The notes below the pieces were generated by a model. The model worked only from the letters and a program-made list of their open reading frames with translations. It did not search any database and was not told the origin of the DNA. This document shows, in pieces, positions 17,933-18,319 of a stretch of DNA of 64,000 bases. A program made the translations under genes and the position numbers. This stretch comes from Escherichia coli (GTDB lineage Bacteria > Pseudomonadota > Gammaproteobacteria > Enterobacterales > Enterobacteriaceae): assembly GCF_003790525.1 (NCBI RefSeq), contig NZ_CP033635.1; one strand, written 5' to 3'. Each line of letters opens with the position of its first letter. Positions within the stretch are counted from its first letter, which is position 1.

Positions 17933-18319
17933 TTAACGATACTTCTGGTGATAGGCGTTGCGGGTCGTTTTCAGTTGCTCTGCGGCAGCCTGCGCTTCTT
18001 TTACTTTACCTTCATTTGCCAGCTTCAGCGCGTCGTCAATCTGACCGACCAGAATGTCGAAACCGTGGCGGAAGTCTTTCATTTCCGGGCTGTCCGGTGA
18101 TTTGCCTTCAAGCTTCGGCGGCGTCGCTTTTTGCGCATCCAGCGCCGCAGCGCGCATTTTAGTTAACGCGTCTTTGACTTGCACCGCGTTATCGGCTTTT
18201 TCGACCACTTTTAAATTGTCGTTGAGGGTTTCCATATTGTCTTCCAGATCAGCGGCAAACGACGCCGAACTGAATACCAATGAGGAGACGGCAAGAATAG
18301 CTAACAGGCTTTTACGCAT
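17933..18319 (-). CDS. cybC: Soluble cytochrome b562 precursor (128 aa, intact signal peptide)
   Basis: [47 protein letters not shown]...NAYHQKYR. Confidence 0.92.

Follow-up and report, generated by a model that had tools for sequence, protein, structure and literature searches.

Soluble cytochrome b562 (CybC) – known from the solved structures 256B, 1QPU and 1APC, and the parent of the 'BRIL' fusion partner – is made as a 128-residue precursor with a signal peptide and has a mature length of 106 residues, within which Met7 and His102 are the axial ligands of the haem (256B structure). Its gene lies in a pmbA-cybC-nrdG neighbourhood. No physiological electron-transfer partner of the protein is known in the literature, and cybC has been described as 'a pseudogene in strain MG1655' (PMC3349551). 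CybC is expressed in strains other than K-12 and is cryptic in K-12 (PMC4361602), and its transcript is more abundant in REL606 than in MG1655 (PMC3446290).

The RelBE toxin-antitoxin system of Escherichia coli K-12 is a second point of reference; it is encoded by b1563/b1564 within the Qin prophage as an antitoxin-first operon of overlapping genes. RelBE-type operons are autoregulated, and residues K52, K54, R61, R81, and Y87 of K-12 RelE are the catalytic, active-site residues of the toxin. Judging from locus-tag numbering, the Salmonella Typhimurium genes STM4449-STM4450 presumably lie beside nrdG (STM4451), which we use as a lead only. The two genes are listed as a relEB-type module (PMC3868539, retracted; PMC8708949).

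Here, we describe cybC and its surroundings in a 64,000-nucleotide stretch of E. coli DNA (the window; part of contig NZ_CP033635.1), and compare them with K-12, with other E. coli strains, and with related genera. The features of the locus are collected in Table 1. We are highly confident that cybC of the window is the normal functional allele, that an intact gene is the rule from which K-12 is excepted by a 26-bp deletion, and that the relBE pair beside it is a separate polymorphism of an old resident. Over a 1.3-kb stretch around cybC the window matches E. coli SMS-3-5 at 100% identity, and the SMS-3-5 record lists the genes as nrdG, RelE-family toxin, RelB/DinJ antitoxin, cybC, and pmbA.

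Table 1. Features of the pmbA-cybC-nrdG interval, with positions numbered from the first base of the window
Feature	Position	Strand	Basis
nrdG, conserved gene on the left side, transcribed towards relE and cybC	16754..17218	+	ORF; Pfam Fer4_12 (E 1.6e-56); annotation
RelE-type toxin gene, 96 aa	17219..17509	-	Pfam ParE_toxin; TIGR02385; identity to K-12 RelE
RelB-type antitoxin gene, 80 aa	17499..17741	-	Pfam RelB; NCBIfam NF008412; identity to K-12 RelB
Inverted repeat TGTAATGCTATAATGCATTACA over TATAAT, 5' of relB; candidate promoter/operator of the toxin-antitoxin pair	17766..17787	-	Stem-loop scan; sequence reading
Terminator-like hairpin directly past the cybC stop, 11 pairs, tail CGCTTTCTTC	17900..17925	-	Pattern scan
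cybC, coding for the 128-aa cytochrome b562 precursor, TAA included	17933..18319	-	ORF list; Pfam; NCBIfam; SMS-3-5 annotation
Mature cytochrome b562, 106 aa, with Met7 and His102	17936..18253	-	Alignment to 1apc/1qpu/256b
Signal-peptide codons 1-22, predicted cleavage after Ala22	18254..18319	-	Solved mature chains start at residue 23; sequence features
26 bp deleted in K-12, GTGAGCAATGCGTAAAAGCCTGTTAG: post-RBS spacer, ATG, and codons 1-6	18301..18326	-	Six-sequence alignment
Shine-Dalgarno-like AAGGAAG, 6 nt 5' of ATG (putative function)	18326..18332	-	Sequence reading
Hairpin rich in G+C in the pmbA-cybC spacer, with T7 after it on the + strand (antisense with respect to cybC)	18348..18369	+	Pattern scan
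pmbA (tldE), conserved upstream neighbour, 55 bp from cybC, same strand	18375..19727	-	ORF; annotation

The cybC reading frame is complete, running on the minus strand for 128 codons from an ATG at 18319-18317 to a TAA at 17935-17933. Its product matches the whole of the Pfam family PF07361 (Cytochrom_B562; residues 24-128 to model positions 1-102 of 102, E 2.5e-33, 115.2 bits against a cut-off of 30 bits) and the NCBIfam equivalog NF011632, 'cytochrome b562' (model positions 1-127 of 127, 192.6 bits against a cut-off of 130 bits). The 106-residue chains 1apc, 1qpu, and 256b align over their full length (1-106), with no gap, to residues 23-128 (E 8e-63), and the 128-residue chain 9tmp_A aligns with the product over all 128 residues. 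The first 22 residues show the features of a Sec-type signal peptide, with a basic N-terminus (R2, K3), then a hydrophobic core, and small side chains at -3 and -1 (S-F-A), and the ADLEDN that follows is the N-terminus of solved mature cytochrome b562. The original prediction of a full 128-residue precursor with a complete signal peptide is thus borne out by the reading frame, by both family models, and by the solved chains beginning at residue 23, an agreement that chance could not produce.

Relative to the B-lineage protein, the window precursor has three substitutions (V39I, V46A, and G72D), none at a haem ligand, and Met7 and His102 (mature numbering) are both present. The end-to-end alignment and the small number of substitutions imply the four-helix-bundle fold of the family. 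In the scheme that we favour, the pre-protein would be exported by Sec and its signal peptide cut by signal peptidase I after Ala22, which would release a 106-residue four-helix-bundle haemoprotein to the periplasm with one b-type haem held by Met7 and His102. We infer that expression, export, cleavage, and haem loading all take place in the window strain. The window locus further differs from that of the B lineage in having relBE between cybC and nrdG and in the absence of a 128-bp upstream element that is described below.

Could the gene be intact in sequence and still be silent, or its product non-functional? A pattern scan found no sigma-70 consensus promoter in the 55-bp spacer between pmbA and cybC, so that cybC may be transcribed from a weak promoter or by read-through out of pmbA; co-transcription of pmbA and cybC is possible. 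The three substitutions relative to strain B, and the convergence of nrdDG transcription on cybC with no terminator between nrdG and relE, could also be read in favour of a silent or inactive gene. Against this, the gene retains a ribosome-binding site, an ATG, a signal peptide, both haem ligands, and a terminator, and the spacer organisation of the window occurs in approximately 28% of genomes (the 5,426 examined less the 3,886 with the upstream element). Moreover, one of the three variant residues also occurs in O145, whose cybC is otherwise K-12-like, and in NGF1, whose intact allele departs from the window protein only at V46A. We therefore regard a silent or non-functional cybC in the window strain as extremely improbable, and return to the normal, functional allele as the preferred reading. 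The terminator-like hairpin past the stop codon is itself specific to alleles bearing the toxin-antitoxin pair, the same hairpin being found in E. albertii and O145, and alignment places a different hairpin at this position in alleles without the pair.

The state of cybC in K-12 was established from an alignment of the pmbA-to-nrdG interval in six sequences: the window, MG1655, BW25113, NEBExpress (B lineage), NGF1, and an O145 strain. MG1655 and BW25113 lack exactly 26 bp, and the other four alleles are intact. In NC_000913.3, b4236 (cybC, 4459488-4459855) is flagged as a pseudogene, and the feature begins at the first base beyond the 26-bp gap. The remainder of the K-12 coding sequence is collinear with the window and carries A122S and Q125K, both common to O145. 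The K-12 truncation put forward in the original prediction is therefore real, as the pseudogene flag, the loss of the ATG and codons 1-6, and the published statements (PMC3349551, PMC4361602) all attest. In the junction alignment against K-12 and the B lineage that it proposed, the K-12 sequence proved neither intact nor identical to the window. Our literature searches brought up no primary description of the 26-bp deletion, although they did show the K-12 gene to be described as a pseudogene or as cryptic.

The six-way alignment resolves two separate K-12 events at the 5' side of cybC, namely a pmbA-cybC spacer larger by 128 bp, owing to a palindromic element, and the 26-bp deletion, which among the aligned alleles is unique to K-12. 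A first pairwise alignment had given the appearance that the 5' end of K-12 cybC was replaced by approximately 146 bp of foreign sequence, and this was refuted by the six-way alignment. The deletion also bears on a further part of the original prediction, in which the K-12 cybC state served as a marker of the nrdG-cybC junction: the lesion is at the pmbA-proximal 5' end of the gene, approximately 390 bp away from that junction, and is an independent event, so that in this respect the prediction did not hold.

Intact cybC is the normal state in E. coli, and K-12 is the exception. Among 5,426 complete E. coli genomes (of which 5,425 were matched by blastn), the cybC 5' region is at least 80% covered in 5,070 and is cut at the edge of the deletion in 355; a query specific to the K-12 junction was likewise fully matched in 355 of the 5,426. 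Seven deletion carriers were sampled and all look K-12-like, these being ER1709, MC1061, MG1655, and an O16:H48 mouse-gut isolate from the junction query, and W3110, a record named 'K-12', and one 4.60-Mb dog isolate from the 5'-region query. Megablast with the 101-bp 5' query undercounts, matching 4,731 genomes compared to 5,425 by blastn, because the K-12 allele is without a 28-bp exact word. In one further genome, E. coli GPT21-004_1, cybC is split by ISEc22, an IS66-family element (L007 3114-5962), the sole case of this kind noticed in the 5,426.

RefSeq is inconsistent in its treatment of the same K-12 sequence, which is called a pseudogene in MG1655 (L006 989-1356) and an unflagged 121-aa coding sequence with an ATT start in BW25113 (L001 1614-1979). 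Taken at face value, the BW25113 call (a PGAP prediction of 366 nt, WP_023649327.1, with no pseudogene flag) would mean that the K-12 gene is not dead, and that some cytochrome b562 is made from an in-frame ATT beyond the deletion. The deletion does leave AAGGAA 2 nt before this ATT, and the hydrophobic core and the SFA cleavage site are retained. However, initiation would have to use ATT, a very weak start codon, at a spacing of 2-3 nt from the ribosome-binding site, which is too short by what is established of translation initiation. The signal peptide has also lost its basic residues (R2, K3), and the curated MG1655 record has cybC as a pseudogene. In addition, CybC is described as cryptic in K-12 (PMC4361602), and K-12 has less cybC transcript than strain B (PMC3446290). 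Because of the weak start codon, the short spacing, and the missing basic residues, real expression from the BW25113 ATT start is unlikely, and we give little credence to the idea that K-12 cybC still yields cytochrome b562; a gene inactivated by its 26-bp deletion is the reading we retain.

The second K-12 event, the enlarged spacer, reflects a 138-bp imperfect palindromic segment (BW25113 L001 1995-2132) that stands in place of 10 bp, CAAATCTCCA, carried by NGF1 and by the window, where the segment is absent at approximately 18333-18347. The element lies just downstream of the 18348-18369 hairpin in the direction of cybC – a hairpin kept in all alleles compared in the six-sequence alignment – and as RNA folds to -61.5 kcal/mol. 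Of the 5,426 E. coli genomes, 3,886 carry it, as does E. albertii. In B, O145, EE72d, and E. albertii it goes together with an intact cybC start; the 26-bp deletion is thus independent of it. An exact 40-mer test had suggested that EE72d is without the element, and alignment shows it to be present there with substitutions. At megablast sensitivity there is one copy per genome, and none in the window. We considered whether it is an ERIC/IRU repeat; the ERIC primer sequences fit poorly, with 8 mismatches in 22 positions. The poor match and the single copy per genome lead us to leave the element unnamed.

Other repeats are present nearby. An Rfam scan of window positions 14000-22000 gave no match at the cybC locus, and a weak match to naRNA4, a REP-derived family, at 20395-20430 on the minus strand (37.2 bits relative to a gathering score of 59.5), probably due to a REP-type repeat in the yjgA-mpl interval. 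A palindromic repeat rich in G+C, CCCTCTCCCTCAAGGGAGAGGG, with TCACCCTAACC before it, lies in the spacer between nrdD and nrdG (16570-16650) and is a candidate for the 'Box C' intergenic repeat of E. coli.

On the other side of cybC, the window has a pair of genes that K-12 lacks at this locus. The antitoxin matches PF04221 (RelB; E 6e-16, 58.6 bits) and NF008412 (130 bits against a cut-off of 96 bits), and the toxin matches PF05016 (ParE_toxin; E 2.6e-14, 54 bits, cut-off 23) and, barely over its cut-off of 27.9 bits, TIGR02385 (RelE_StbE; 28.0 bits). As in K-12 RelBE, the antitoxin gene is immediately upstream of the toxin gene and overlaps it, here by 11 nt (17499-17509). The proteins are 64% (toxin, without gaps) and 48% (antitoxin) identical to their K-12 counterparts over their full length, and the residues K52, K54, R61, R81, and Y87 of K-12 RelE are all identical in the gap-free alignment of the toxin. 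The window pair, a predicted toxin-antitoxin system, adjoins nrdG whereas K-12 RelBE sits in a prophage, and the two are clearly paralogues at different loci. The inverted repeat upstream of relB is a putative operator, a role suggested by the known autoregulation of RelBE-type operons.

The pair is uncommon in E. coli. The 714-bp segment that contains it is complete in 391 of the 5,426 genomes, partial in approximately 63 (mostly with the antitoxin only), and absent from approximately 4,970. In alleles without the pair, cybC and nrdG are 44 bp apart with a different hairpin in the spacer, and the last three nrdG codons differ synonymously. An orphan RelB-type antitoxin occurs in O145 RM9467-C1 (L005 370-609) and approximately 60 other genomes; O145 has lost relE by a deletion of approximately 285 bp between 8-bp direct repeats, CTGGATGA, which encode the ...LDE C-termini common to both proteins of the pair. 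The absence of both the pair and the 26 bp from K-12, together with the identity of a 25-kb stretch of the window (5000-29999) to non-K-12 strains (100% to XDL, KFu014, M172-1, 702/18, and others, relative to 95-99% to most E. coli), confirms that the window is not from K-12, as had been proposed.

Beyond E. coli, we surveyed other species with a degenerate RelE motif, one genome per species, and then searched the loci among the matches listed with the window proteins. At the nrdG-cybC site of E. albertii NBRC 107761 (L013 5574-6026), relE abuts nrdG and has a frameshift of one A within an A-run, most of relB and of its promoter is deleted, the cybC hairpin is the same as in the window, and an intact cybC is followed by pmbA. 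Among the matches listed, nrdG is followed within 3 nt by convergent relE-relB in Enterobacter wuhouensis, E. cloacae M-7, Enterobacter sp. Bisph1, Kosakonia cowanii, and two MAGs, one of Enterobacter and one from soil with no closer label than Proteobacteria. Identities to the window in these Enterobacter, Kosakonia, and MAG loci are 81-85% for relB, 60-72% for relE, and 87-90% for nrdG. The gene after relBE in E. wuhouensis is that for a 636-aa regulator and not cybC.

These distributions bear on how the pair came to lie beside cybC. The original prediction saw in it the sign of a strain-variable hotspot at the nrdG-cybC junction, which would make the pair a recent insertion into a site of recombination or integration. 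The junction does vary, with complete, partial, and absent forms in the proportions given above, and the state of the pair is uncoupled from the cybC allele: with respect to the pair and the palindromic element, the window is +/-, EE72d +/+, NGF1 -/-, and B and K-12 -/+, and the occurrence of all four combinations indicates that recombination or recurrent events have shuffled the 1.3-kb interval, at a scale of approximately 0.5 kb. However, a single kind of cargo was seen at the site, and we found no flanking direct repeats, integrase, or att-like sequence at the pair. A plasmid search with the toxin gave no close mobile source, the best match to a true plasmid being 66% identical. (A 4.9-Mb record filed among plasmids, NZ_CP134663.1 of H199, has relE at 97.9% identity and is evidently a mislabelled chromosome.) The module abuts nrdG in the same orientation in E. 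albertii, Enterobacter, and Kosakonia, at a divergence comparable to that of nrdG, and the variants are forms of decay, with relE deleted in O145, and relB deleted and relE frameshifted in E. albertii. Recent insertion into a hotspot is thus unlikely, and of the earlier proposal the variability of the junction stands while insertion gives way to loss. Because the module occupies this position in the sampled Enterobacter and Kosakonia genomes too, and in decayed form in E. albertii, relBE beside nrdG is probably older than the genus Escherichia, an old resident kept in the lineage of the window and lost repeatedly, and from most E. coli; relBE may also have been transferred horizontally together with its nrdG flank.

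The arrangement of this resident pair raises a further possibility. The relE and nrdG stop codons directly abut on opposite strands (17218/17219), a pattern scan found no terminator between the two genes, and the first strong terminator-like site on the plus strand past nrdG is the 18348-18369 hairpin, beyond cybC. Without a terminator between nrdG and relE, read-through from nrdDG would be antisense to relBE and cybC. It is conceivable, though very doubtful, that the abutment is conserved across Escherichia, Enterobacter, and Kosakonia for a functional reason, with anaerobically induced nrdDG transcription running antisense through relBE and cybC as far as the hairpin. If so, antisense read-through would couple the balance of toxin and antitoxin, and the expression of cytochrome b562, to oxygen, and most E. 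coli, in losing the module, would have exchanged the read-through layout for a bidirectional terminator.

That cybC is normally intact and is a pseudogene in K-12 was already known, and the significance of the present comparison is small and mostly one of bookkeeping. It adds the exact 26-bp lesion and its frequency, the inconsistency of the RefSeq calls, and the status of relBE as probably an ancestral and decaying resident rather than the cargo of a hotspot, and it flags the window as non-K-12 E. coli. For the biology of cytochrome b562 it means that K-12 is an atypical strain, its deletion being carried by 355 of 5,426 genomes, of which those sampled are K-12-like.
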